A DNA stretch of 64,000 nt from Promethearchaeota archaeon. GTDB taxonomy: Archaea; Asgardarchaeota; Heimdallarchaeia; Hodarchaeales; Hodarchaeaceae. The notes below the pieces were generated by a model, which saw only the letters and a list, made by a program, of their open reading frames with translations, was not told the origin of the DNA and ran no database searches. The position numbers and the translations under genes were made by a program. Positions 8,851 to 64,000 of this stretch are shown here, in pieces. Every line of letters starts with the position of its first letter. Positions within the stretch are counted from its first letter, which is position 1. Location of the stretch: positions 169,270 through 233,269 of the forward strand of contig JBHLMN010000009.1 of NCBI GenBank assembly GCA_048938105.1. The letters run 5' to 3'.

Positions 8851-9747
8851 TTGGTTAGAGATTATTATGACGCTCTTGGAGTTTCTCGTGATGCAGATCT
8901 ATCAGCAATCAAAAAAGCATATCGTAAGATGGCTTTGAAATACCATCCTGACAGAGCGAAGGACAGTGGAATGGATCCGAAGGCTGCAGAGGAAAAATTT
9001 AAAGAGATCTCTGAAGCTTATTCAGTCCTTTCAGATAAAGAAAAAAGAAAACAATATGATATGTTTGGACATGACGCTTTTTCACAATACGGACGAGGAG
9101 GGAAGGGGGGATTTAGGATGGATATTGATCCATTTGAAATTTTTTCACAATTTTTTGGTGGGGATGATATTTTCTCATCTTTTGGAACAAGAGGATCACC
9201 ATTTTCAAGCCGAGGAACTCCTTTCAGCAGAACTCAACCACCACAAAGAGGTACAGATGTGAAAATCTCCCTTAACATTAAGATATCAGAGATTGAAGGG
9301 AGAACAACGAATTTGAAGAAAACTATTAGTCTAAAACGTAAATATCAGGATGGAACCGTTAAGAAAGAAAAAATCCGCATCCCAATTCCCTCAAACATTG
9401 AAAATGGAAAAGTATTGCGCATAGCTGGGAAGGGAAATCAGGGTAAAATGGGAGGGCCTTCTGGAGATTTATTAATTGAAATTTCCTTAATAGATGACAT
9501 ACTAGAGATACCTGTATCTGTTTTTTTGGCCATTCGAGGTTCGGATCTTACGATCAAGACCCCTCTAGGGGATCAATTATCAGGAACTATTCCGAGAAAT
9601 ACGAGAGAAAATGCCATACTTACTTTTATTACTGCTGATGGTCAGAGTAAGAAAGTTAGAGTGAAATATCGGTATCCAAAGACTCTATCAGAGAGTCAGG
9701 AAGATCTTTTAACAAAATTACTTGAGCTTGATAGGAAGAAGGAATAA
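8851..9747 (+). CDS. Class B J-domain protein (DnaJ/CbpA-like, no zinc finger)
   Basis: [15 protein letters not shown]-rich region, C-terminal LRIAGKG...GDLLI; no CxxCxGxG repeats. Confidence 0.9.
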
Positions 9748-48874: not shown

Positions 48875-48927
48875 CTAATTCTGTGAAGATTTTGTAATTT
48901 AACTGGTATTTAAGGAGAATAAAAAAA

Positions 48928-49332
48928 ATGAATGAATTAAATGATTTGAGTAAAAGTGTGATATTTCCCAAAGGAGAAAAAGCTACAAGCGACTATTTCA
49001 CTGGGAATGTGTGGGTTCAAATGTTAGTGACAGAAGATTTTTTTAATTGTCCAGTATACAATGTGACCTTTGAACCAAAAGCAAGAACTAAATGGCATTC
49101 ACATCCAGGAGGTCAAATTCTTCTTGTAACAGGAGGTAAAGGATATTATCAAGAAGAAGGCAAACCAGCACAATCGCTTCAGGAAGGAGATGTTGTGAAA
49201 ATACCGCCAAATGTGAAACATTGGCATGGGGCATCAAAAAATAGTTGGTTTGTTCATGTTGGAATAAGTACGAATCCTAATTTAGGAAATGCTGAATGGT
49301 ACGGACCAGTAACAGAGGAGGAATATCAATGA
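48928..49332 (+). CDS. Cupin-domain protein
   Basis: FEPKARTKWHSHPGGQIL and VKHWHGA. Confidence 0.9.
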   Translation: MNELNDLSKSVIFPKGEKATSDYFTGNVWVQMLVTEDFFNCPVYNVTFEPKARTKWHSHPGGQILLVTGGKGYYQEEGKPAQSLQEGDVVKIPPNVKHWHGASKNSWFVHVGISTNPNLGNAEWYGPVTEEEYQ

Positions 49333-49400
49333 AAGCAGCAATATTCAGAGGTAAGGGTAAGATAGTGATTGAAGAGCGACCAAACGAAAAAAAGCTTTAA
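49329..49400 (+). pseudogene. N-terminal stub of a zinc-dependent (MDR) dehydrogenase
   Basis: ATGA overlap with the cupin stop; MKAAIFRGKGKIVIEERP then stop. Confidence 0.6.
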
Positions 49401-49454
49401 TTGCATATTATTCCCGAAGAGGGAATAATTATGCAAATAGACTGATTAACAAGG

Positions 49455-51179
49455 ATGAACTTAATGACAAAAATCATAATCGAAAAAAATATCATGGTTC
49501 CCATGCGTGATGGGGTAAAGCTCGCCACTGACATTTATCGGCTGGAAGGCGCATCTCCAGCACCTGTGCTGGTTGTTCGCACACCATACAACAAAGACCA
49601 CGTGGTCATAAATGGTGATATCTTCAATATTTTACAGGGAGTACAAAATGGTTATACGGTAGTGGCTCAGGATGTGCGGGGACGCTATGCCTCCGAAGGG
49701 ATATTTAATCCGCACGTTCAAGAAACAGCTGACGGCCTCGATGCCTTTGCTTGGGCAGCTGCTCAATCTTGGTCAAACGGTACAGTAGGCACTTTCGGAG
49801 GTTCTTATCTGGGTAGTACCCAGTGGCTTCCGGCTCGTGAACAACCTCCAACGTTACGGGCAATAACGCCATCGATCACCTTCTCCGATAGCTACGAGGG
49901 TTGCGCATACCAAGGTGGAGCTAAGGTACTCCATGATCTACGCTGGGTGGCCGTAGATATCGTTCCAACAGAAATTGAGCGACGTATAGCTCGCGGTGAG
50001 AAGCCATTAGATAGTGAGACCCCTTTGGACGTGGATATGGTACTGACTGAACTCCCACTCGCCACACATCCATTGATACAGAAGTATGCAGCTTTCTACC
50101 TTGATTGGTTGGCTCACCCAACTGCGGATGACTTCTGGTTACCTTCATCACCCAAGGCGGGATATGAGCAAATTATTGTACCTGCTCTCAACATCAGTGG
50201 CTGGTACGATATCTTTCTCTGGAGCACCATCCAGAATTACTTGGGCATGAAGTTACGAGGTGGAACGGAAAAGGCTCGTCAGAACCAGCGATTGATCATC
50301 GGTCCTTGGAGTCATATGAACTTTAGCGGTAGCTTCCCAGAACGTGAATTTGGTTGGGGTGGTAGTAGCGCTGCCATCGATCTACCTGGTATCCATATTC
50401 GTTGGTTCGACCGTTGGTTGAAAAATGTAGACAATAGTATAGACCAAGAGCCACCAGTGATGATTTTTGTGATGGGTGTTGACAAATGGCGCCATGAGGC
50501 TGATTGGCCGCTACCCAAAACGCAATACTGCCCTTTTTACCTGCACAGTAATGGAACAGCACATACACTTCATGGTGATGGAATACTCTCAACCGAATTA
50601 CCAAGTAATGAACCATCGGACATGTACCTGTACAACCCGCTACGCCCGGTGCCAACAGTTGGTGGACAGGTTATCTTACCTGGTGGAAATGCTATAGGAC
50701 CTCGCGACCAGCGTGAAGTTGAATTGCGCGACGACGTTCTAGTGTATAGCACTCCGGTCTTGGAGCAAGCTGTCGAAGTAATAGGCCCAATCGAGTTGTG
50801 GCTATTCGTGTCATCTTCAGCACCTGATACAGACTTTACGGGTAAGTTGGTAGATGTCTACCCGGATGGACGGGCAATAATCCTGACTGAGGGCATCTTA
50901 CGAGCGCGTTATCGCAATTCATTCATCGAGCCTGAACTTCTTGAACCGAATAAAGTACATAAACTCCGACTAAACCTGTGGGCCACGGCAAATGTGTTTC
51001 TACCTGGTCATTGTATCCGACTGGAGGTTTCGAGCAGTAATTTTCCACGTTTTGACCGTAACAGCAACACAGGTGGGGTTATCGCCAGTGAAAGCAGCGA
51101 TCAATATCAACCGGCGATCAATCGCATTTTTCATGACGCCACGCATCCGTCTCATCTACTTCTTCCCCTAATCGTTTGA
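49455..51179 (+). CDS. CocE/NonD family hydrolase (S15), GC-richer than surroundings
   Basis: MRDGVKLATD, RTPY, QDVRGRYASEG, GGSYLG, GWYD, IGPWSH and SSNFPRFDRN. Confidence 0.93.
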   Translation: MNLMTKIIIEKNIMVPMRDGVKLATDIYRLEGASPAPVLVVRTPYNKDHVVINGDIFNILQGVQNGYTVVAQDVRGRYASEGIFNPHVQETADGLDAFAWAAAQSWSNGTVGTFGGSYLGSTQWLPAREQPPTLRAITPSITFSDSYEGCAYQGGAKVLHDLRWVAVDIVPTEIERRIARGEKPLDSETPLDVDMVLTELPLATHPLIQKYAAFYLDWLAHPTADDFWLPSSPKAGYEQIIVPALNISGWYDIFLWSTIQNYLGMKLRGGTEKARQNQRLIIGPWSHMNFSGSFPEREFGWGGSSAAIDLPGIHIRWFDRWLKNVDNSIDQEPPVMIFVMGVDKWRHEADWPLPKTQYCPFYLHSNGTAHTLHGDGILSTELPSNEPSDMYLYNPLRPVPTVGGQVILPGGNAIGPRDQREVELRDDVLVYSTPVLEQAVEVIGPIELWLFVSSSAPDTDFTGKLVDVYPDGRAIILTEGILRARYRNSFIEPELLEPNKVHKLRLNLWATANVFLPGHCIRLEVSSSNFPRFDRNSNTGGVIASESSDQYQPAINRIFHDATHPSHLLLPLIV

Positions 51180-51218
51180 TAAGGATTATTAAAAGATTGA
51201 ATCTATCGAGTTAAGCAT

Positions 51219-52267: not shown

Positions 52268-52372
52268 TAATCATTTCCTCTGACTTGATTCGATGGCATC
52301 AGTTTCAGTAATAAAAGGGTTGGTAACTGTTCACATTTTTCTAGGAAAATATCGGTTTTTAAATCCTTTCAT

Positions 52373-52414
52373 GAGCCCATTAAGATGCGGGTTCGAGTCC
52401 TGCCCGGGCCGTCA
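52373..52414 (+). pseudogene. Orphan 3' half of a tRNA gene (T-arm plus 3' acceptor strand)
   Basis: T-stem GCGGG/CCTGC with TTCGAGT loop, then CCGGGCC-G; no complementary GGCCCGG 5' strand or D-arm seen upstream. Confidence 0.7.
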
Positions 52415-52421
52415 ACCTTGG

Positions 52422-52535
52422 TTATTCTTCTTCATTTGTTGTTTCTTTATGCTTCTCAAGTAGTTCACGGATTTTTTTCAATGAAAAATCCGAACCACAT
52501 GCTTCATCAATGATTTGTTTGTTTTCGTCGACCAT
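52422..52535 (-). CDS. Putative 37-aa small protein
   Basis: MVDENKQIIDEACGSDFSLKKIRELLEKHKETTNEEE*, preceded by GGAGAGTGA; below the ORF-track cutoff. Confidence 0.4.
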   Translation of the reverse strand: MVDENKQIIDEACGSDFSLKKIRELLEKHKETTNEEE

Positions 52536-52700
52536 ACAAACTTCACTCTCCCCAATAGACATTTAAGATCTTTCTTTTATATAAGTCGCACGGTTACAAC
52601 TTATGATCGAACCACTTTTGATGTTCAAGCTATTGTGAAATATTAAAAATTTCGTTAAATGGAAAAAGGAGAACATACTTTTAAAAATTCTTTAAAACAG

Positions 52701-52728
52701 ATCTGATATAACCAACGTTAAATGAAAT
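52701..52728 (+). repeat. dif-like 11-6-11 site A
   Basis: ATCTGATATAA-CCAACG-TTAAATGAAAT; arms 8/11 inverted. Confidence 0.65.
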
Positions 52729-52951
52729 CATATATAGGAACATGTATAGCTTTCTTAACGTATCCAAAGTGTAATGTAAAATTAATGTCTTATCAAGAAA
52801 AACGGATCAAGTCAATAAATGTCAAGGTATCTCGCTTTTTTAAGCTCCAATAATTAATATTAATTAGAAGCGATCCTTGTTAATCTTAATCAGGTTGCTT
52901 AGAAAGAATACCAACAATGTAATCCTAGAGTAAAGTAAAATTCTTTAACCT

Positions 52952-53443
52952 TTATTTGAGGGCTTTATCATTTGCTTCTGAAAGATGTTGTTGGCAAATT
53001 TTCCAACTTACATCACGTTTTTCCAGAATACCAGTCCATCGAATATTTTTTGATCCCCAAGGTTTTCCATCAAATTCTCCTTCATCATCTACTATTGCAG
53101 AGAACCAAGCAACATCTTTATTTTGCGAGATTACAATTTTAAGGTTTCTTATTTCAAATCCTTTAGCGATATTACGTGGATCCATCCATCCCTCTAAAAA
53201 TTTCTCAAATTCGTTCCAGCCTGTAGCTGTACTCTTAGAGTCTGGAAAATATGAAAAAAAATCATCGTCTTGTGCAAAGATACTTTCAAAGAGCGCACGA
53301 TCTTTTGTCAAAGCCCAACCAAAAGCATCGTGGAGTATTCTGCTAATCTCCTGCTTAATTTTAGTTTCATTTAACGAGGACATATTAAGTTCAACAAATT
53401 TGTCATGATTTGAAAATAAATATACATTATTTGATTGTGGCAT
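52952..53443 (-). CDS. NTF2/SnoaL-like domain protein (likely start 53383)
   Basis: DVAWFSA, IRWTGILEKRD..WKICQQHLS. Confidence 0.85.
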   Translation of the reverse strand: MPQSNNVYLFSNHDKFVELNMSSLNETKIKQEISRILHDAFGWALTKDRALFESIFAQDDDFFSYFPDSKSTATGWNEFEKFLEGWMDPRNIAKGFEIRNLKIVISQNKDVAWFSAIVDDEGEFDGKPWGSKNIRWTGILEKRDVSWKICQQHLSEANDKALK

Positions 53444-53552
53444 TCAGTCTACTCATAATCCGATATTATTTTGATCCAGTTTTCTGATTTGAGTTCTCTC
53501 TCAACTCGAAGTTAAAACACCACTGAATTATAAATATATATGTGAGACTATG

Positions 53553-54605
53553 TTATCGTCTCCTCTCTGTTAGAGCTTTTAGCCGGTCATATGCATCAGA
53601 GCTCTTTGAAAATGGGCATACCTTCACACACACTGAGCACCCAAAATATTGTGCAAAGTATTCGAAACATTTCTCTTGCGAGATATTGGTGACTCGGCCA
53701 GAATAATGTAGGATGGAGTCTCTTAGTATTGCTTTTGGGGGGCACTGCTTGATGCAGATCCCGCAAATGTTACAGTAATCTGCAATCCATTCATGGTCGT
53801 TTGAATCCGCGAATGGGAGATTCTTAATGCTCGTATAGACAGCTGCTAACCTCACTCTAGGGCCAAAATCCCGCGTTATCAGGAGCCCATGTTTCCCAAC
53901 CCAACCAATTCCAGCTTTCTGAGCTAGAGGAGGAAATAGGCTCAATCCTCCAAGTGGATGATCTGCCTGAGCTGCATAGCCCTGGTCTCTGAGAAACTCT
54001 GCAAGTCTGTTGGCTGCTTTTCCCAAATCGTCATAGGTTCCGAACACCATATTCAAGGTTGCTTGGCTTGGCGCTTTGTCGATTTTCTCTTTACTCATTT
54101 CCATTGCGAGAATGATGGCATTATCATAGAGAACTCCATAGTGGTGAAAGATGAGATCTTGTGGTAACTTCACGAATCCAACTTGGCTTACCCCTAAACT
54201 TCGGGAGTAGTCCTGAAGCTGCTCCAAAAACTCCTGAGGAACGTCTGAATTTGGATCCAGTGGATTTTCTTGAATTGAATCGACAGAGAGATGAATGTTT
54301 CTCAATATTGAAAGAAGGCGTCTAATGGGAAATATGTGCCTCATTTCGATATCATCTCGCTCTTGAAAGAGACTCAACATCTCCAGAGGTATCTCGAACC
54401 TAGTCGGAGAATTTGATGTCGAATGAAGAATCCCAGACATCTCAAGTAGCGATCTCTGCTTCGCAATCATTCGTGTGACTCTTGGTATACCGAATCTCAT
54501 GACGAACATTTTCGTGAACATGTGCTTTATTCTTATTTTCATCTTCTCACAAACTAGATTCATCCATTGTTTATTAAAATTCACCCAGATTATGTTATAT
54601 AACAA
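53553..54605 (-). CDS. Reductive dehalogenase/QueG-like cobalamin and 2x[4Fe-4S] protein (true start probably downstream of 54605)
   Basis: FLRDQGY, LAQKAGIGWVGKHGLLITRDFGPRVRL, CNICGICIKQCP and C...GCSVCVKVCP; no Tat signal. Confidence 0.85.
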   Translation of the reverse strand: MLYNIIWVNFNKQWMNLVCEKMKIRIKHMFTKMFVMRFGIPRVTRMIAKQRSLLEMSGILHSTSNSPTRFEIPLEMLSLFQERDDIEMRHIFPIRRLLSILRNIHLSVDSIQENPLDPNSDVPQEFLEQLQDYSRSLGVSQVGFVKLPQDLIFHHYGVLYDNAIILAMEMSKEKIDKAPSQATLNMVFGTYDDLGKAANRLAEFLRDQGYAAQADHPLGGLSLFPPLAQKAGIGWVGKHGLLITRDFGPRVRLAAVYTSIKNLPFADSNDHEWIADYCNICGICIKQCPPKAILRDSILHYSGRVTNISQEKCFEYFAQYFGCSVCVKVCPFSKSSDAYDRLKALTERRR

Positions 54606-54932
54606 ATACCAATATCTAATTGTGGAGTATTTTGCTAAGTGCCTATATTGCTAGATAAACTCAATGCTAGGTTCATGATTTATATAAAACTAGTTGGTTA
54701 TTCAATGAAGAACTATCCAATGATATCTGTAGAATTATATAGCATTTTACTAACGAACGGCGGTTTACTCATTAATGAATTATCCGTGAATATTTTATAT
54801 TTTAGCGTATAGATTAGTTGTTTTAGACAAAATTTTAAATTTACCACCTCTTATTATTGCATTAAAAGTCAGTTATAAATACTAATCCTACTATTGTTCA
54901 TCATTGATTATCTAATATATGGAGATACAAAA

Positions 54933-55885
54933 TTGTCTTAAGAGGAGATTGTCATAAAAACTACAGATCTTACTAAATATATAACGATGTTATTGCTCTA
55001 AAAAAATTAAATCTTGAAGTGAAAAAGCATTCAATCTTTGGATTTCTTGATCCAAATGGAGCTGGGAAGACTACGACGATTAAACTGTTAATTGGCTTAA
55101 TTCAACCCACTTCTGGTAGTGGGGAGATTTTTGGACTTAATTTCAAAAGTGAAAGCATGAAAATTCGCTCCCGAATTGGATATTTACCTCAAGAACCCTC
55201 TTTTTATGATCATCTTTGTGCTCAAGAAATATTAGACTTCACCGCTCGATTTTTCTTTAAGGGCCCTAAAATTGAAATAACTAAACGTATATCTGAAATG
55301 CTTGAGTTAGTTAGTCTTTCAGATAAAGCAAATCGGCCTGTAAAAGGTTATTCTACAGGTGAGAAACAACGATTGGGGATTGCACAAGCGATGATCAATT
55401 ATCCTGATCTCTTGATTTTAGATGAACCGGCTGCTTCTTTGGATCCAGTTGGTCGTCAAGACGTATTGAATATCATGTCAAAACTCCGTGAATATACCAC
55501 GATCTTCTATTCAACACACATTTTAGATGATGTCCAAAGGGTAAGTGATAATGTAGCAATTCTGAATAGAGGAATGTTGGTATCAGAGGGATCAATCGAA
55601 GAAATATTATCAAAAAAGGAGGAAATAATTTTCAGTGCTAAAATCCAAGGAGATATTTCTAAAATTAAATCACTGGTTTCCTCTTGTGAATGGATCTCTG
55701 ATATTCATACTACTCAATTAAAAGAAAAAGACAAATTCCGTGTAGAGTTTACTGTATCAAATGAAAAACAAGCAGAGAAATACCTGCTTAGAGAATTAAT
55801 GAAGGATAATTCTTTAGTAATCAGTGATTTTCGACGTCAAGAATATAATTTGGAAGATATTTTTATGACAATAGTTGAGGGATAG
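54933..55885 (+). pseudogene. ABC transporter ATP-binding subunit, disrupted
   Basis: TTG-TCT-TAA early stop; IVIKTTDLTK is out of frame with YNDVIALKKLNLEV; Walker A reads DPNGAGKT; remainder intact (LILDEP, STH). Confidence 0.75.
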
Positions 55886-55887
55886 AG

Positions 55888-56679
55888 ATGTATACAAATG
55901 AGAAAATGGAAGAAAAGCTATCATTAAATTGGACTCGTGGATTTGATAACCAATTTCGAATTGAATTGTCAAGATGGTTCAAAGGAAAAAAATTTGTAAC
56001 TCACTTGCTTTTGTGGTGTGGAACTATAAACGGCCTCATACAATTACTCTGGTTACAATCACCTCATATAGAAACATACCTCCCGATAATGCTGTTTAGT
56101 ATTCTAGAAGGTTTAGTCCCCTCAATTGGAATAATAATTTTAATGCAAGAATCAATTGCTGGTGAGATTAAGACTGGTACCGCGTCATGGATACTTTCGA
56201 AACCTATCTCAAGAGAATCCTATATTCTTGCCAAATGGTTAGGAAATTTGATAGGGGCTACCGTAACAATGATTATTATACCTTCTATCATATTTCATCT
56301 TCAATTATTGATATTTACTGACTTGACAATAAATTATAGTATGTTAATCCCAGTAATTTTAGTATTAACGCTAAATATGCTACTTTATTTATCATTTACA
56401 CTTTTTATGGGTTCATTTCAACGAAATTCAGCTTTAATTATTGCTTTACCAATTGGAATCTATTTGTTACAACAGTTTATCCTAGTGATTTTTGATTTTA
56501 TGGTTGATTATATTCCGTGGGGATTAACAGCACCATTATTAGATGATACACCAAGTATTGTAGTATCACTAATTTCAGGACTAGATCCTTTCTCATTAAT
56601 GCCAATGATTTCAATTTCAGTGTACATTCTCGTGTTTTTGATATTAGCTAAAATGATAATGCAGAGGCAGGAGATTTAG
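55888..56679 (+). CDS. ABC-2 type permease
   Basis: 6 TM; SIAGEIKTGTASWILSKPISRESYILAKW. Confidence 0.88.
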   Translation: MYTNEKMEEKLSLNWTRGFDNQFRIELSRWFKGKKFVTHLLLWCGTINGLIQLLWLQSPHIETYLPIMLFSILEGLVPSIGIIILMQESIAGEIKTGTASWILSKPISRESYILAKWLGNLIGATVTMIIIPSIIFHLQLLIFTDLTINYSMLIPVILVLTLNMLLYLSFTLFMGSFQRNSALIIALPIGIYLLQQFILVIFDFMVDYIPWGLTAPLLDDTPSIVVSLISGLDPFSLMPMISISVYILVFLILAKMIMQRQEI

Positions 56680-56866
56680 GACAGTTTTTACCTCTATTTT
56701 TCTATCGAATACTCCAGTGTTTCGATTTCTTCTTTTGTTCCACAAAAAAAATCTACAGTTTAATGTTAGCTGATTTATCTCCGAAAATTTCTCCTATATC
56801 CCTGCTGTCATCCTTTCTCTCAAACCAGAACTAATTGATTTGATCTTTCAACTTTATATATAACAG

Positions 56867-56894
56867 ATGTGCAATAACCAACGTTCATTGACAT
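56867..56894 (+). repeat. dif-like 11-6-11 site B
   Basis: ATGTGCAATAA-CCAACG-TTCATTGACAT. Confidence 0.7.
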
Positions 56895-56929
56895 TTTCAG
56901 GGATTCCCCCTGTTTGTAGATTCTGGATC

Positions 56930-57676
56930 CTACATATTTGTTTCATATGATCTTCCTAATCGTAGCAGGTCTAATCCAAGAAAGATATACCAAGGAATGT
57001 AAAATATCCCAGCAACAAGTAAAAGAGGGGCTGATATGGAGGGAAGGAAAATATGAAATGCATGTTGGAATAAATCCAATCCTGTAGCAAGGATTCCTGA
57101 GATAACAGTTCGTTTTTTGAATTCATTACTTTGTAACATCAACATAGAAATCATTAAGAATGACCCTAAGAAAAGAATACCCATCACATAACCTGCAGTA
57201 TTATGCCACAAGCTATTGGCTAAAACAGCTTCCCCTGCTGCTAATAATTGTTCTTTCAGAGCATCTGTAGAAGCAGCAGCATATCGATCACTAAGGTAAA
57301 AGAGAGAAAAAATTTCATTTGCGATAAGTCCCATAGTTGTTGAAATAAAGATAAATGCTGTAAACATACTTATTAGTGCTTCATTTCTCTTTCTAAGGAC
57401 TGCAAAAATACCTAAACTGGTAAAATAATTACAAATCATAAAAGCCACCATTGGAAGATCCATTAGAAAAATGGCTGCCAACCTATCATTATTGATCATG
57501 TTAAAATAATCACTAGCAGAATCTAATGGTAAATAATCAGTAGCTATTGATAAAGGCATCTCTATTGCAAAGACTATTGCTAAATACGCTAATTGTATAA
57601 ACACAGCTATACTTGCAATCTTTATTATGTCATTCCAACTCTTATATGTCTCCTTTATTGCTAATTTCTCACTCAT
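56930..57676 (-). CDS. DUF4386-like membrane protein
   Basis: About 6 TM; LSDRYAAASTD..K.QLLAAGEAVLA motif. Confidence 0.75.
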   Translation of the reverse strand: MSEKLAIKETYKSWNDIIKIASIAVFIQLAYLAIVFAIEMPLSIATDYLPLDSASDYFNMINNDRLAAIFLMDLPMVAFMICNYFTSLGIFAVLRKRNEALISMFTAFIFISTTMGLIANEIFSLFYLSDRYAAASTDALKEQLLAAGEAVLANSLWHNTAGYVMGILFLGSFLMISMLMLQSNEFKKRTVISGILATGLDLFQHAFHIFLPSISAPLLLVAGIFYIPWYIFLGLDLLRLGRSYETNM

Positions 57677-57927
57677 TCTTTTTTCAACTCATTATTTTTT
57701 CATGAATAATATTTGTTATACTATTACTCATCTATATATGAGTTATAGTATGAGCTATTTAAAGGAAGCTATTGTGTCATCTTGTATAAAATTACAAGAA
57801 AATTAGAAAAAATTAATTGCTAGAGCTTTTCCGAATGTGGTATATTTTGCATTATACTTAAAATATTCGAATTTTGAGATACACAGATACCAATTACTAA
57901 AAAAAAAACAACACTACGATGTATTTT

Positions 57928-57992
57928 TTTCAAAAACTTAACTTACACACATTTGAACTTATTAAAATATTTTATCAGTTATGTCGCAAAAT
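57928..57992 (+). repeat. Dispersed repeat of about 65 bp, copy 2
   Basis: Matches 46509-46574. Confidence 0.75.
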
Positions 57993-58234
57993 AATTGATT
58001 TAACTCTCCAGTTAAAGAATTATACTTTAATTTTAAGTCTGGATTTGTTTCCAGAAGCTCAGAAATCTGATTCTTAAGATTATCTACACTTTTTTGTTTT
58101 TCATCAACTTTTCTTGATAATATCCCACGAATCCTACGGTTTTTCTCTAGCTTTTGTTCAAGTTCTGTCTTTTTTTGTTGATAGAGATTTTCAAGCTCCT
58201 TATCCGATAACTATTCAAGTTTTTCTCTTGTCAA
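57962..58234 (-). pseudogene. Small coiled-coil ORF with in-frame TAG at codon 8
   Basis: MTREKLE*LSDKELENLYQQKKTELEQKLEKNRRIRG...DKIF*. Confidence 0.5.
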
Positions 58235-58791
58235 CAACGAAATTTACTCTTATAATGAGTAGGGAAGTTGATTTTTTAAATTATTAGTTGAAAAATGAAG
58301 CCTTGTTAAGAAACTATCTATAATATTGCTAAGAATCTCATTTTGATTAATAGATAAGAAATTAGAAGCTAATAGTTGATCGTTTGGATATTTAGAGCCT
58401 AAAATTCTAAGAAAGTCAACACAAAACATTCTAAAAAGATTAATTGCGTCTGGTTCTAGGTATATTCAGTCATTTAGTATATAATATTATTGTATTGGTT
58501 TTCCGATTTTATTTAGAATAGAATTGTTTTGTAATAGTTGGAGGTAAAATGAACTGAATTGAAAATAAAACCAGAATAATTGTTATTAAAAATTTAAAAA
58601 ACCATACAAGGATCATCAAACCACTATTATAGTAATATTTGTCAATACCAGTTGAGTATAAGTATTTTAGGATATTTTATCCTCTTAGCTTGAATTACCT
58701 TAGGATTAAGTTCATAAAGACTTATCATCTGAAATTTCTGTTTACGAGAAGAATTATTATAGTGATAATTTCATATTAAAACTCTTCCTTT

Positions 58792-58808
58792 TCAACGTTT
58801 AACGATGT
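58792..58808 (+). repeat. dif-like half-site E (spacer plus right arm)
   Basis: TCAACG-TTTAACGATGT; 13 bp CAACGTTTAACGA identical to site C. Confidence 0.5.
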
Positions 58809-59192
58809 CAGCCTTATCAATTCGTGTTATAATAAGTCCATTTGAATACACGCATCCATATACACCTTTTTAATAATGTACTCATACCCAAGAAAAGTTT
58901 AAATAACGGAAAAGGTATTTTAAGTATAGTTCACAAATTGAGAAAATTCACATAGAAAATTGTATAAATTGAACAGAATGATAAAATCGCTTATTTATCT
59001 AACCTTTCAGTAATTGAAACCATTAAAGATCTAATAATTAAAATCATTCCCAATCGGACTCTTACATTAAAAACAGCATCAAAAATAAATCTGGATCTAG
59101 GATATCAATTCAATCAATGATAGCAATAAATCCAAACAGAAAGGAAGAAGAAATATCGAGTTGACTGAACCTAGAAGAAGCTTGGATTAATA

Positions 59193-59387
59193 ATGTTCCG
59201 ACAGAAATATAGAGTTGGTATCGCGTTTGTGTTACTAACAACTTTGATGATTGGAATAATAACAGGAAATGCCATCGGAGATTATGTCTTAAGTAACACA
59301 GCACATATTAAGATTAAGATTAAGCTGCTACTTACTTTGGGGAATGGACAACTCTTACTTAAGTCTATAGTGGATTTTATTCTTTAG
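59193..59387 (+). pseudogene. Truncated paralog of the downstream surface protein
   Basis: VGIAFVLLTTLMIGIITGNAIGDYVLSN vs VGIAILATLMIGIMVGIAIDYLLLSN. Confidence 0.55.
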
Positions 59388-59405
59388 ATTCAAAAAACGA
59401 ATATA

Positions 59406-59972
59406 GTGGAATTAGAAATGACAAATATTAGAGGAATTAAAACCAAAAAAACTGTTGGGATTGCTATTCTAGCAACCTTGATGATTGGAATAATGGTAGG
59501 TATTGCTATTGATTATTTATTGCTAAGTAACGAGGCAAGTTTTAACATTACCCTACAGACTGGTTTACCGTTGAATTGCCAATTCACAAAGGAACCTAGC
59601 GGTAACATTTATGTAGATCAGTGGTATAATCAATCTATTGAAGTCACAGTAACAAATAACGACGATTACCAAGGATATAATATTCTTTACCACATAAATA
59701 TCACAGCAAGTGGGATAACTAGTGGAAACATTGAAATGCTTGCTCGCGTAAAAGGGCAAATAACAGGTGTCTGGTCTAGTAATTACACTTTATCCTTCAG
59801 TACAATAGACACAGATATAATCCATGCCACATTTCTTGCTAGTGAAACATTAATAGCCAAATCTGGTGAAAATGACGACGTTCTTATTGCACAAATATTT
59901 TTCAGAATTCTTAGCGGTGCACCAACTGGTCAATGGGATGTCGATCTCTGGATAGAAGGTTATCCTGAATAA
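59406..59972 (+). CDS. Exported beta-rich (Ig-like) protein with N-terminal signal/TM
   Basis: KTKK plus hydrophobic helix, then alternating beta-strand patterns and several NxS/T sequons. Confidence 0.75.
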   Translation: MELEMTNIRGIKTKKTVGIAILATLMIGIMVGIAIDYLLLSNEASFNITLQTGLPLNCQFTKEPSGNIYVDQWYNQSIEVTVTNNDDYQGYNILYHINITASGITSGNIEMLARVKGQITGVWSSNYTLSFSTIDTDIIHATFLASETLIAKSGENDDVLIAQIFFRILSGAPTGQWDVDLWIEGYPE

Positions 59973-60031
59973 TTACACATTTCTTCTTTTTCTCAATAAG
60001 CTTATCACAAATACTTTTTGGTGAAGAAGAA

Positions 60032-60760
60032 ATGAATAATAGATCGACAATCAGACTTTTTATAGTTGGTATTCTCATTCTGACCTTTTTTTTGTCCCAA
60101 AATTCGCTTTGGACCTCAAAAAGTAATGATCAAAGAACATCCCCTTTGAAATTCTCTCTCACTAAAGAAGAAGAAGAAGAGTATATTACATTTGGTGATC
60201 TCCAAAATTCAACTAATTATAAGGTAGTTGGTTCAGATCCTTCTGCAATTCCAGGAGAATTTCACAATGTTCAAGTAAATATAACCTTATACGCTATATC
60301 AATTTGGTTTAATACCACTAAACCCTTATTTAATATAATAAACCATAATGAAAATGATATAGACCTTGTTTTTAGGGCATCAAAAGGCAATAGGAAGTTC
60401 CAATGGATCGTAATGAAATTTTTGCAAATAGAAACAAATACATGGGCTTCTATTATCTGGAATGATACAGGTGACGTTACCTTTCAAGGTGATTGGAAAT
60501 CTCAAAGAGAAAACCCTCAGGAAGAAAGAGGATCTCTCCAAATACCTGGAACAAGAAATAAAATTACCAATTCAGTTAGTTTTTTCTCAATGTCTATACT
60601 ACTTGATAAGAACATTATGAAGTCAGATATTCAAAATCTCCATTGGCGTCTAGAGCTTATGCGGGTAGTAGAAGAAAAAAAATCTCCAGGATTCTCGCTA
60701 TTTCCAAGTATTATAACTCTTATAATTTTCTTCGTTTTCTTTAGAAAAAGAAAAAAATAA
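60032..60760 (+). CDS. Surface protein with signal peptide and PGF-CTERM-like anchor
   Basis: N-terminal signal; C-terminal SPGF-TM-RKRKK. Confidence 0.8.
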   Translation: MNNRSTIRLFIVGILILTFFLSQNSLWTSKSNDQRTSPLKFSLTKEEEEEYITFGDLQNSTNYKVVGSDPSAIPGEFHNVQVNITLYAISIWFNTTKPLFNIINHNENDIDLVFRASKGNRKFQWIVMKFLQIETNTWASIIWNDTGDVTFQGDWKSQRENPQEERGSLQIPGTRNKITNSVSFFSMSILLDKNIMKSDIQNLHWRLELMRVVEEKKSPGFSLFPSIITLIIFFVFFRKRKK

Positions 60761-60828
60761 AGAGAATCACCACAGAAAAAAATGATAATTTAAGAATGTT
60801 ATAAGTCTTGTTTGACGAAATCTAGAAA

Positions 60829-60856
60829 ATGTCGTATAACCAACGTTTAACGACAT
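60829..60856 (+). repeat. dif-like 11-6-11 site C (most palindromic)
   Basis: ATGTCGTATAA-CCAACG-TTTAACGACAT; arms 9/11 inverted. Confidence 0.72.
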
Positions 60857-61088
60857 ATTCAAGGATTTTCCACACTGAAATTTCAAGGAAGCTAGCTTTA
60901 ACAATTATAATCATCGTTTGAAGACAAAAAAAGGACTGTTCTATCAGAATTTATTTCAATTGATTGGTATCTATGATATATTTATAATATTGTAGAAGTC
61001 GAAAAATGTAATTTCAGGAATAGTATAGGAGTGTCGTTAAATTGATATACTATCATATTTCCTTTTTTAGTTATTAAATCTGTTTGCT

Positions 61089-63149
61089 TTATCCTTTAAA
61101 CACCAAACTTTTTACCGTTACAGGATATGTGTCACCACTGCGTAAAGGAGCCCCAATATCAATCCAATCTCCAGCCTCTAATGTTAACTCATCTAAACAG
61201 ATTAAATTATCTTGAATCGACGTTTCACGACGAAATGTAGTCCCTATAATTCTAGCCCCGTCCATTTTAAAAAGTAAAATGATTTTCTTCTTCTTAACAA
61301 CGGAGTTCGGAAGTGCTTCTTCAATAGCTTTTGTAAATTCAATAATTTTCTCACCAGATGACATAACAGGACGGATGAAATATAAGGCTACAAGATCTTC
61401 ACCTTCAATAAAATCAAAGTTTTTGAATGAGTTTTGAATTTCTTTTATTATAATTTCACAGGTAAAATTCCTAAAAGTAACATTTACTGGAAGAACTGGG
61501 ACATTTAAAAGAGGTAGTGTGATATTCTCCGAAACAAAGCAAGTTGAACCTGAGACATTAAGAGAAAACGCTCCTGCTCCTATGACCGTAGCTCGAATTT
61601 TATTTACTGGTTCGATAATTTTTAAATTCAGATCTTTCATCTGAATTGTAATTTCTTCCGCAAGATACTTACCAATGTCGTCGAATTCGCCCTCACTTCC
61701 ATAAATTAGCTCCGAAACTCCTCCTGTAAAAGAATACTCTGTGATAGGTATGGAGAATTCAAGATCCTCAGTTATCATAAGTCGTTTGGCTACATCACTT
61801 TTTGCTGGGCCTTTCATAACCTCCATAAGTATTTCAGCAAATTTCTTTGCAACAAATTTCACCTCAGCTTTAGAGATGATATCTCCCACGCGATAATTTA
61901 AGCCCAGTTCCTCCATCACGATATGGCAGGGTTCGTCAATTCTCCAGATCTTGAATTCTTTATCAATTCCTAATAATCGGGCTCCTACACTTATAGCTGC
62001 CGTGCTAAGAATCCGTCCTTTTGAAATAATAGAAAGTTTGCTAGAACCTCCTCCAACGTCTGCATTTAGAATCGTACGAGGAGGACTTTGAGACAGCCCG
62101 ATAACACCACTTCCCTTGGCACCTAGAAAAGCTTCAAAATTAGGTCCAGCTGTTGCACTTACAAATTTACCTGTCTCTGTAGAAATCTTATTTACAATTT
62201 CAGCGGCGTTTTGTTTTTTTGAGGCTTCTCCAGTAACAATAACAGCACCTGTATCTACCAAAGAAGGGTCAATATTAGCGTTCTTAAATTCTTTGTGAAT
62301 GAATTTAATCACAGCGTCAATCTCAATCGTATTACGATCGAGTAAAGGTGTAAAAATGATATTTCCTTCATAAATTACTTTTCGGCTGATAGGTATGAAT
62401 CGATTTGACATATTAAGAAAACCCTGTTCTCGTTTGAGGGTTATCTTAGAAAAGACAAGATGGGATGTAGACGAGCCTATATCTATCCCTACACTCAAAA
62501 CTTCTAAATATTCAGCATTAGAATCATCTGAATATGTATTTCCCATCACGTGCTCAGCTGAAAATTGGATTTCATCCAAATCAGATTTAATCTTGGACTC
62601 ACTTTCTCTACTAGAAGATTCTGGTTCAACTTTAACAATTATAATCTGCATTTCTGTATCATGATGTTTAGGCAGTTCTATTCCATCTGAGGAATCTAGG
62701 AGCTGAGCTTTAAGGTCAGCTGGAATATCGAATTTTTCTTTACATTCGGTACAAATGAACATGATATCTATAGAGGGGTCATGGCCTGGAAGAAGTGGTG
62801 ATCTTGTTTCAACAACATTAACTTCTCCTGTAATTTGGCGTCTCGCACTAGCCAACATAGCATTAAAATTCATCGAAACTGCTTCACAAGTGATATTAAA
62901 TACTTCTCCAGGTTCTAATACCGAGGCTAAGACAGGTTTAAAGGTAACAATTAGACGACGTAGTTTTAAATAATCTGTAATATCTTCTTCAGTATATTTC
63001 ATAAGTTGTTTGTCATATTTTCGATTAAATAGCTCTGCGAGTTCATCAGCTTCTTCTGGCATAAATTTCTTTAAAATTGTGTAAACAATGAAACAGGCTC
63101 CAGATTTTACACTGTCTACATGAATTTTTACATCTTTATATAGTTCCAA
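61089..63149 (-). CDS. eutA: EutA (ethanolamine ammonia-lyase reactivase)-family protein with an N-terminal extension of about 210 aa
   Basis: LSVGIDIGSSTSHLVFS, TGAVIVTGEA, FVSATAGPNFEA..GAKGSG, DVGGGS, IRATVIGAG, DWIDIG.PL and VTVKSL. Confidence 0.85.
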   Translation of the reverse strand: MELYKDVKIHVDSVKSGACFIVYTILKKFMPEEADELAELFNRKYDKQLMKYTEEDITDYLKLRRLIVTFKPVLASVLEPGEVFNITCEAVSMNFNAMLASARRQITGEVNVVETRSPLLPGHDPSIDIMFICTECKEKFDIPADLKAQLLDSSDGIELPKHHDTEMQIIIVKVEPESSSRESESKIKSDLDEIQFSAEHVMGNTYSDDSNAEYLEVLSVGIDIGSSTSHLVFSKITLKREQGFLNMSNRFIPISRKVIYEGNIIFTPLLDRNTIEIDAVIKFIHKEFKNANIDPSLVDTGAVIVTGEASKKQNAAEIVNKISTETGKFVSATAGPNFEAFLGAKGSGVIGLSQSPPRTILNADVGGGSSKLSIISKGRILSTAAISVGARLLGIDKEFKIWRIDEPCHIVMEELGLNYRVGDIISKAEVKFVAKKFAEILMEVMKGPAKSDVAKRLMITEDLEFSIPITEYSFTGGVSELIYGSEGEFDDIGKYLAEEITIQMKDLNLKIIEPVNKIRATVIGAGAFSLNVSGSTCFVSENITLPLLNVPVLPVNVTFRNFTCEIIIKEIQNSFKNFDFIEGEDLVALYFIRPVMSSGEKIIEFTKAIEEALPNSVVKKKKIILLFKMDGARIIGTTFRRETSIQDNLICLDELTLEAGDWIDIGAPLRSGDTYPVTVKSLVFKG

Positions 63150-63500
63150 GGTTAAGTACTCCAGTCATAATTTTCGGATTAAAGGCGATTTTATTTAATA
63201 AAATAGTAAGGATATCCTGTTTAATTTATAGAATTGATATAATTCAATCTTTTTGATTAATTAGAATTTCTAATAGAAGGAATACAGAATTTTTTTCTTA
63301 GATAGAATATAGCTAAAAAGATTTATATGATTATTTAATTAATTTAATCCAAATAATGGATATAAGACATGATATATCGAAAAATCTATAAAAATCGGAC
63401 CTAATCAACGTTTCCTCAGAACTCTTCTTTAACTTTGGTTTAAAGACAACATACATAGCAACATATATAGCTTCGGGATTAATTTTAAGGAAAGAAAAAA

Positions 63501-63731
63501 ATGAATTGCACAATTTGTAAAGGAAATCTTATGCAAATTAAAGAAAAGTTCCTAGTTACAATTAAGGGTCAGGATATTCTAATCAAAAATCTTGAAATAT
63601 TAGAATGTGAAAATTGTGGAGAACGCTATTTAACTCCTGAAACTGATGAAAAACTAGAGAGATTGATTCTTAAATATAAACAAGGAAATATTCCTATCAC
63701 ACATCAGGATATTATTCAATTGGAAGTTTGA
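63501..63731 (+). CDS. YgiT/MqsA-type zinc finger protein
   Basis: CTICKG...ILIKNL...CENCGERYLTPET. Confidence 0.85.
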   Translation: MNCTICKGNLMQIKEKFLVTIKGQDILIKNLEILECENCGERYLTPETDEKLERLILKYKQGNIPITHQDIIQLEV

Positions 63732-63764
63732 TCAGAAAAGCTCTACTTTTTTCTTTTATAATAG

Positions 63765-63781
63765 ATGTGCAATAACCAACG
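63765..63781 (+). repeat. dif-like half-site D (left arm plus spacer)
   Basis: AGATGTGCAATAACCAACG identical over 19 bp to site B; right arm absent. Confidence 0.65.
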
Positions 63782-64000
63782 AAAAGAGAATATACATAGT
63801 AATATGTCAGCTTCATTTATGAATCCAATATTATGCTCACGAAAATCTTTATGTTTTCTTTATATACTAATTCTGTGTCTCAAGAGAACCAAATATCAAG
63901 AGTGATATCATTATCACTATAAAAAAAAAGAGTTATCCCCCTAATATTCCTTCTTAAAGATGAATAATTTCCCAACACCTTCCTCAGGGCGCTCATTTAT

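Follow-up and report, generated by a model that had tools for sequence, protein, structure and literature searches.

Arrays of Xer-type sites delimit candidate mobile gene modules in an archaeal genus related to Hodarchaeales

Sites and modules at the locus

The stretch of DNA analysed here, called the window, comprises 64,000 nucleotides from a Promethearchaeota archaeon (NCBI GenBank assembly GCA_048938105.1, contig JBHLMN010000009.1, positions 169,270 to 233,269) and lies on contig C53 of the source genome, G000, which has 5.85 Mb in 65 contigs. Towards its right end, short repeated sites on the + strand separate small groups of genes. These sites, the gene modules between them and the recombinase that may act on them are the subject of this study. 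Three sites are complete, namely site A (52701-52728, ATCTGATATAA-CCAACG-TTAAATGAAAT, core 52712-52717), site B (56867-56894, ATGTGCAATAA-CCAACG-TTCATTGACAT, core 56878-56883) and site C (60829-60856, ATGTCGTATAA-CCAACG-TTTAACGACAT), the last being the most symmetric copy with 9/11 arm positions. A first-pass annotation of this DNA had described them as direct repeats of 11-6-11 geometry with the spacer CCAACG, and their sequences, strand and geometry are as it claimed. It was also right about site D (63765-63781, +), which has the same left arm and core as B (ATGTGCAATAA-CCAACG) and then runs into unrelated sequence, its right arm belonging to no known family, and about the mosaic flanks, the left one being common to B and D and the right one to B and C. 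Its half-site E (58781-58808, +) is present in degenerate form, but the core is TCAACG (58792-58797) rather than CCAACG, the right arm (TTTAACGATGT) is two positions off that of C, and the site scores under the threshold of the strict scan described below. We add a new site F (63394-63421, +; C53:232674), which reads ATCGGACCTAA-TCAACG-TTTCCTCAGAA with its core at 63405-63410 and is followed by a flank of family R3 to about 63455.

Several of these sites carry conserved flanks and secondary cores. The conserved right flank of site A (52729-52769, +) ends in a degenerate second core, CCAAAG (52764-52769), so that core A and the CCAAAG core 52 bp later form a double site. Beyond site D, a degenerate core CCAATA (63825-63830, +) is followed by a conserved 36-bp flank of family R2 (63831-63866). 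The right flank of site C is kept in at least five other species (query 9638-9727). The 12-mer ATAACCAACGTT occurs three times in the window. With at most one mismatch it gives four window matches against 0.37 expected, and none of 100 shuffles reaches four. A chance origin of the window repeats is excluded. The array may run further than we see it, since the window stops where contig C53 ends.

The sites divide the region into modules of different content. Module A-B (52770-56866) holds four genes, for a SnoaL_3 protein (52952-53443, -), a 4Fe-4S protein (53553-54605, -), an ABC ATPase (55019-55885, +) and an ABC-2 permease (55888-56679, +), with Pfam support for the SnoaL, 4Fe-4S and ABC assignments. 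Module B-E (56895-58780) encodes a protein of 248 aa that falls into no family (56930-57676, -) and continues as a stretch poor in open reading frames (ORFs) with a gene remnant. Three ORFs of 64, 188 and 242 aa, all on the + strand and without a Pfam family, occupy module E-C (58809-60828). An EutA-like protein recognised by Pfam (61089-63149, -) fills module C-F (60857-63393), and the short module F-D (63422-63764) contains a 76-aa zinc-ribbon ORF (63501-63731, +) whose match to the MqsA/YgiT antitoxin is below the Pfam threshold. Thus, Pfam bears out the earlier SnoaL, 4Fe-4S, ABC and EutA calls, and gives no support to DUF4386 or to the proposed surface proteins. The single EutA plus YgiT unit that had been proposed is in fact divided in two by site F.

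Two of these genes have close relatives elsewhere. Six other species (G006, G011, G012, G014, G018 and G020; relatives are given by such handles throughout) have a SnoaL_3 gene of 91-94% identity to that of the window, and the match is confined to the gene, with unrelated flanks in every case. In G011 and G014 this gene is preceded, at a distance of about 100 bp, by a site-like sequence. The EutA homologue of G011 has 82% nucleotide identity and stands in a core-genome context without sites.

Arrays across the genome and the genus

Exact copies of ATAACCAACGTT number 10 in the genome, against about 1.4 expected. A strict scan, which asked for a core with at most one mismatch and for one or more arms of the known families, found 59 sites in the genome, compared with 6 when the reversed genome was scanned as a control. 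These sites form at least 10 arrays. Most of them are intergenic (46/59, 78%), although intergenic DNA makes up only about 15% of the genome. Within arrays the sites point the same way, in 10 of 10 cases on C56, 5 of 5 in the window, 5 of 5 on C3 and 4 of 4 on C61. The genes flanking the sites show all four relative orientations, with convergent pairs at 18 of 56 sites, and these convergent and mixed orientations weigh against a promoter or operator role. Thus, the motif behaves as the first-pass annotation had expected of recombination sites, in co-oriented intergenic arrays and not scattered at promoters. A full 28-bp position weight matrix, at a score of at least 18, yields 9 hits (2 in the control) and few sites beyond the seeds. 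It adds little, as only one canonical arm is left at most sites. Many arrays sit at contig ends, and such breaks would be expected if the population is heterogeneous there.

The modules range from 0.05 to 13 kb and often hold several genes in either orientation with their own promoters. Those of the window include divergent operons. Assorted genes for accessory metabolism and transport make up the cargo. The cassette proteins scanned or annotated included no transposase, which bears on the earlier concern that the motif might be the terminus of an insertion sequence. In the closed genome of G009 the sites cluster at 0.23-0.29, 3.07 and 3.93 Mb. The search for the true dif identified none. Its candidate, an isolated, A-like site at C52:448355, was rejected, as it is not conserved in the genus.

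The motif belongs to the genus. In 20 other species of the genus the 12-mer is enriched (47 copies against 23 in the control), whereas in the rest of the class it is not (4 against 26). G008, G009 and G020 have the same core with a right arm TTnAACGACAT, the extended flank families and co-oriented clusters. We distinguish left flanks L1 (TATATAACAGATGTGCAATAA) and L2 (a hairpin and T-run ending in TTTGAGTATAA) and right flanks R2, R3 and R4. R3 is found at at least eight sites in the genome and also in G008, G009, G018 and G020. The L2 flank consists of a perfect 9-bp hairpin (ATGACTTCA/TGAAGTCAT) and then a T-run directly before the core (L023:18530; L024:63 and 1799; L025:10675; in G000, C3:5809, C34:1616 and C61:203357). 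Such a sequence resembles a terminator at the end of the module before it.

A 52-bp double site also recurs, with two cores around TATACGTAT-CAA-TATACGTAT, and the last eight bases of this 9-mer (ATACGTAT) are palindromic. It is found at L023:18478-18530, L045:13374-13440, L026:3150-3181 and in the C56:197796 region of G000. It is kept in three species and in G009 lies near the integrase module introduced below; it may be an operator for the ribbon-helix-helix (RHH) protein encoded there. Two pairs of sites, identical in their flanks, recur at a spacing of 2991 bp at L026 (G008:C89, 2340-6252); this may mean that a unit of two modules was duplicated in tandem, or the repeat may have arisen in assembly.

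Homology breaks at the core

Between species, homology is lost precisely at the CCAACG spacer, the position that the first-pass annotation had named for a breakpoint check. The clearest case is a block of 2201 bp common to G000 C37 and G009 at 96% identity. A CCAACG core marks its start and the last base of a second such core its end, and the arms and everything outside the two cores are unrelated. G000 C7 and G020 have 821 bp in common at 95% identity, again ending at the core. Over all loci taken from other species, we count 35 one-sided alignments that stop at a core and 1 that runs through. The housekeeping DNA around xerA provides the background, at 74% identity between these species. Modules that are 96-98% identical against this background therefore represent recent transfers.

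The window itself gives a further example. It is 98% identical to G014 over a stretch with a leucine-rich repeat (LRR) gene, a tRNA fragment and a small ORF; through site A the identity is 95%. The homology then stops after the right arm of site A, which differs at two positions. The tRNA fragment (52371-52413, +), read directly from the sequence, consists of the T-arm and the 3' strand of the acceptor, and is adjoined by an inverted core-like AACCTTGGTTAT at 52414-52425. Neither ARAGORN nor Rfam calls a whole tRNA at 52330-52413, and the fragment occurs only once in the genome.

Evidence from other samples comes from Logan contigs only. In these contigs the R2 flank of the window is paired with different left arms and CCAACG at the core. 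An independent sediment-metagenome contig (X3) joins 56883 directly to 63831, that is, the core of B to R2, and loose ends at 63831 are seen in X2 and X5. The short side of these 6.9-kb skips is only 28-29 letters long, so they show the pairing of arms and cores in other loci and not a deletion at this one. Likewise, the fact that the contigs of X3, X5 and X6 leave 57-60 kb uncovered does not mean that this DNA is absent there.

The integrase, rival explanations and known systems

A search with PF00589, the catalytic domain of tyrosine recombinases, gave matches at three places in the genome and none on C53. The protein on C14 is an intact XerA (283 bits against the NCBIfam XerA cutoff of 220). 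The integrase on C56 has 289 aa with SAM_1 and PF00589 catalytic domains according to Pfam, and the alignment shows no variation at its catalytic residues R, H, R, H and Y. Its identity to XerA is 28%. It fits the XerC and XerA models best without reaching the cutoff of either (119 bits against 220 for XerA), and it falls under every equivalog cutoff, including that of the integron-integrase model TIGR02249 (64 bits against 265). A third reading frame for a tyrosine recombinase, containing a TAG in frame, lies at C45:377-844, at the start of a 5.9-kb contig.

The C56 integrase is physically tied to the sites. Its gene follows an RHH gene in one operon, which has a core site (ATGTGTATTAT-CCAACG-CTATACGACAT) 56 bp upstream. 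The operon is part of a 13-kb module bounded by co-oriented sites within the array of 10. In four species (G000, G009, G011 and G020) a core site stands 45-110 bp upstream of the RHH-integrase operon, and the integrase modules are themselves flanked by co-oriented sites. In G020 a double-site unit of the type seen at site A lies about 60 bp upstream of this operon (90% match, G020:C94:10132-10193). Close homologues of the C56 integrase (59-64% identical) are labelled Candidatus Hodarchaeales. More distant ones, on other Hodarchaeales contigs, keep the upstream promoter and an arm like ATGTCGTAAAA and differ in the spacer, and such a change of spacer among distant homologues is usual for families of tyrosine recombinases. 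Beside the integrase homologues of G012, G002, G017, G005 and G008 the CCAACG 12-mer is absent. A search of the genome-contig collection with the integrase returned only one, unrelated, Bacillota match. The RHH-linked integrases of G009, G011 and G020 form a second lineage, which has an insertion of 8-10 residues, for example QEAWWPKA, that is absent from the C56 lineage and from XerA (L045:9657-10529, L046:10050-10943, L047:8799-9689). One Logan contig from a single run (L062, 13,399 bp) consists of the integrase module at about module length; the contig breaks inside the repeated R4 right flank and is not a circle.

The first-pass annotation had proposed that tyrosine-recombinase-type core sites delimit mobile gene modules here. 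The clustering of the sites, the lack of a transposase among the cassette proteins scanned and the breaks at the spacer all uphold this claim. We consider it likely that the loci are tandem arrays of integrative modules, of which one type is autonomous and the rest carry cargo only and are mobilised in trans. Each module would be bounded by a double-stranded site with two inverted arms of about 11 bp around the fixed, asymmetric 6-bp CCAACG, and strand exchange within this spacer would insert, excise and swap modules. Every junction in an array would then be a hybrid of the left arm of one module and the right arm of the next, which accounts for the mosaic flanks. The autonomous module, represented here on C56, would comprise the RHH gene and the divergent Xer-like integrase with a core site at the promoter. 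The other modules, including all of those in the window, would be cargo only and presumably mobilised in trans. The RHH protein may serve as a regulator or directionality factor, and the modules may pass through circular intermediates. To judge from sequence, the C56-type integrase rather than XerA is probably the enzyme, since site and operon are paired in four species and the 12-mer is enriched only in the genus. The earlier suggestion that the host XerA acts with no local recombinase is thereby weakened: the window indeed has none, but the genome does contain a module with an RHH gene, a Xer-like integrase and an upstream site.

Several observations weigh against this array model. Many sites keep only one recognisable arm, and the flank families R2, R3 and L2 do not resemble recombinase arms. 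Some boundaries have no CCAACG, namely both ends of a peptidase S15 block (48909-51185, described below), the left end of the LRR block and the EutA homologue of G011, and these imply that other exchange routes also operate. The G012 integrase is 70% identical to that of C56, yet the homologous upstream position has a different sequence. Finally, neither an excised circle junction nor an empty site was seen in the Logan contigs.

The same modules could be run by the host XerA, the sites being dif mimics comparable to those of integrative mobile elements exploiting Xer (IMEXs) or pdif modules and the RHH-integrase module a passenger. XerA is present and intact on C14, the 11-6-11 geometry with inner ATAA/TT fits Xer sites (PMC2958812), the window and most arrays are without a recombinase, and some members of the genus with a few sites lack a C56-type integrase match at E<=1e-20. 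Even so, we regard this explanation as unlikely. It leaves aside the site at the promoter of the RHH-integrase operon in four species and the restriction of the motif to the genus, and it is less economical. The PF00589 search finds at least one tyrosine-recombinase match other than XerA in each of the five relatives tested. At least 59 sites per genome would also be expected to be hazardous for an enzyme of dimer resolution. Another reading takes the arms as 11-bp terminal inverted repeats of non-autonomous transposons and CCAACG as a 6-bp duplication at a preferred target site. This would explain why modules start with a sequence like TTnAACGACAT and end with its inverse, with the same 6 bp on both sides. 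However, adjacent modules have one common core and not two, the arms fall into several unrelated families, no annotated cassette encodes a transposase, and the sole recombinase physically tied to the sites is a tyrosine recombinase, which makes transposition highly improbable.

There is also a slim chance that the sites are fossils of past integrations and that the system is now inactive in this genome, as the degenerate sites (E, F and the CCAAAG and CCAATA cores among many) and the gene remnants within modules could suggest. Against this stand the intact integrase with all of its catalytic residues, cassettes that are 96-98% identical between species at a 74% background, and contigs that break at arrays as population heterogeneity would have them do. 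Finally, the motif might be a transcription-factor operator or a promoter or terminator element of a regulon, given the TATA-like box about 23 bp upstream of the core in the L1 flank, the TTTATATA within R2 and the hairpin and T-run of L2. We give this almost no weight, because the orientation of the sites follows the array and not the genes, 18 of the 56 lie between convergent genes, and homology between species breaks at the spacer.

Our favoured array model can be compared with known systems. It is akin to integrons, pdif modules and the accretion of cis-mobilizable elements (CIMEs), yet it is a member of none. Integrons and clusters of attC sites lacking integron-integrases (CALINs), which use IntI, attI and attC and include archaeal examples (PMC9668308), also have co-oriented cassette arrays separated by recombination sites, a tyrosine recombinase that acts in trans on arrays without their own, and cassettes common to several taxa. 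The sites here, however, are simple, double-stranded and 28 bp long, and not folded attC of 57-141 nt with R''/L''/L'/R' boxes. The integrase is located inside a cassette, the 13-kb C56 module, rather than beside a fixed attI, and the cassettes are multi-gene, in either orientation and with their own promoters, whereas those of integrons are mostly promoterless co-oriented ORFs. An Rfam scan of the window at gathering thresholds gave no match. Thus, the earlier term integron-like is fair as an analogy, but membership fails, there being no attC and no IntI.

The closest system is the tandem accretion of CIMEs, though no conjugation module is found here. In ICESt1 and ICESt3 of Streptococcus thermophilus, elements with and without an integrase reportedly have the same short att repeat, stand in tandem and are mobilised in cis or in trans. 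The C56 array, with 10 co-oriented sites and one module that carries the RHH gene and integrase, is of this kind. It differs in that the host is archaeal and has dozens of sites in many loci per genome, where CIMEs use one attB. The pdif modules of Acinetobacter and the IMEXs have the same 11-6-11 geometry and likewise carry accessory genes without a recombinase of their own. The pdif sites are inverted, plasmid-borne and served by the host XerCD, while those described here are direct within arrays, chromosomal and spread over several loci; IMEXs insert at the single chromosomal dif; and, unlike both, a dedicated integrase exists here. We know of no archaeon with a XerC/XerD pair. The archaeal XerA/dif system (PMC2958812, PMC3646895) has a single enzyme of the Xer family fold and a near-palindromic 11-6-11 site. 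But dif occurs once per chromosome near the terminus, compared with at least 59 sites in at least 10 arrays, and the site-linked enzyme is only 28% identical to the XerA of this genome.

Canonical attC integrons (PMC9668308) and other mobile elements (PMC8813620, PMC11529989) have been reported in Asgard archaea. Our literature search found nothing that describes arrays of 28-bp sites. On balance, we lean towards the view that this is a previously undescribed archaeal platform for gene capture and exchange, in a genus related to Hodarchaeales and with an RHH-associated Xer-like integrase acting in trans. With the same modest confidence, we suggest that it uses dozens of simple Xer-type sites per genome, at which kilobase-scale modules are inserted, stacked, shuffled and passed between species, and it seems somewhat probable that it parallels integrons in function while having evolved independently with a different site logic. 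Genomes of the host archaeal group are unusually large and gene-rich, with much acquired DNA. If our proposal is true, such gene flow would have a concrete mechanism in a dedicated site-specific system for stacking and exchanging multi-gene modules, and an integron-like outcome would be reachable with plain double-stranded sites of the Xer type. In addition, the short defined sites and the small recombinase would be candidates for archaeal genetic tools.

Some minor features of the window should also be recorded. The peptidase S15 gene and the preceding 134-aa ORF (48909-51185) are 93-96% identical to G011:C14, where the block interrupts a region that is syntenic with contig C11 of G000 and otherwise about 76% identical. 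The block is mobile, yet it has no CCAACG site at either end. About 1.5 kb (57677-59190), including degenerate site E, are free of ORFs over 59 aa. A remnant of 68 residues (57980-58183, -) corresponds to an intact gene at C36:45066-45653. A 71-bp segment of the window (52561-52631) is absent from G014 and from a contig of run X2, and represents an indel polymorphism within the 98%-identical block.

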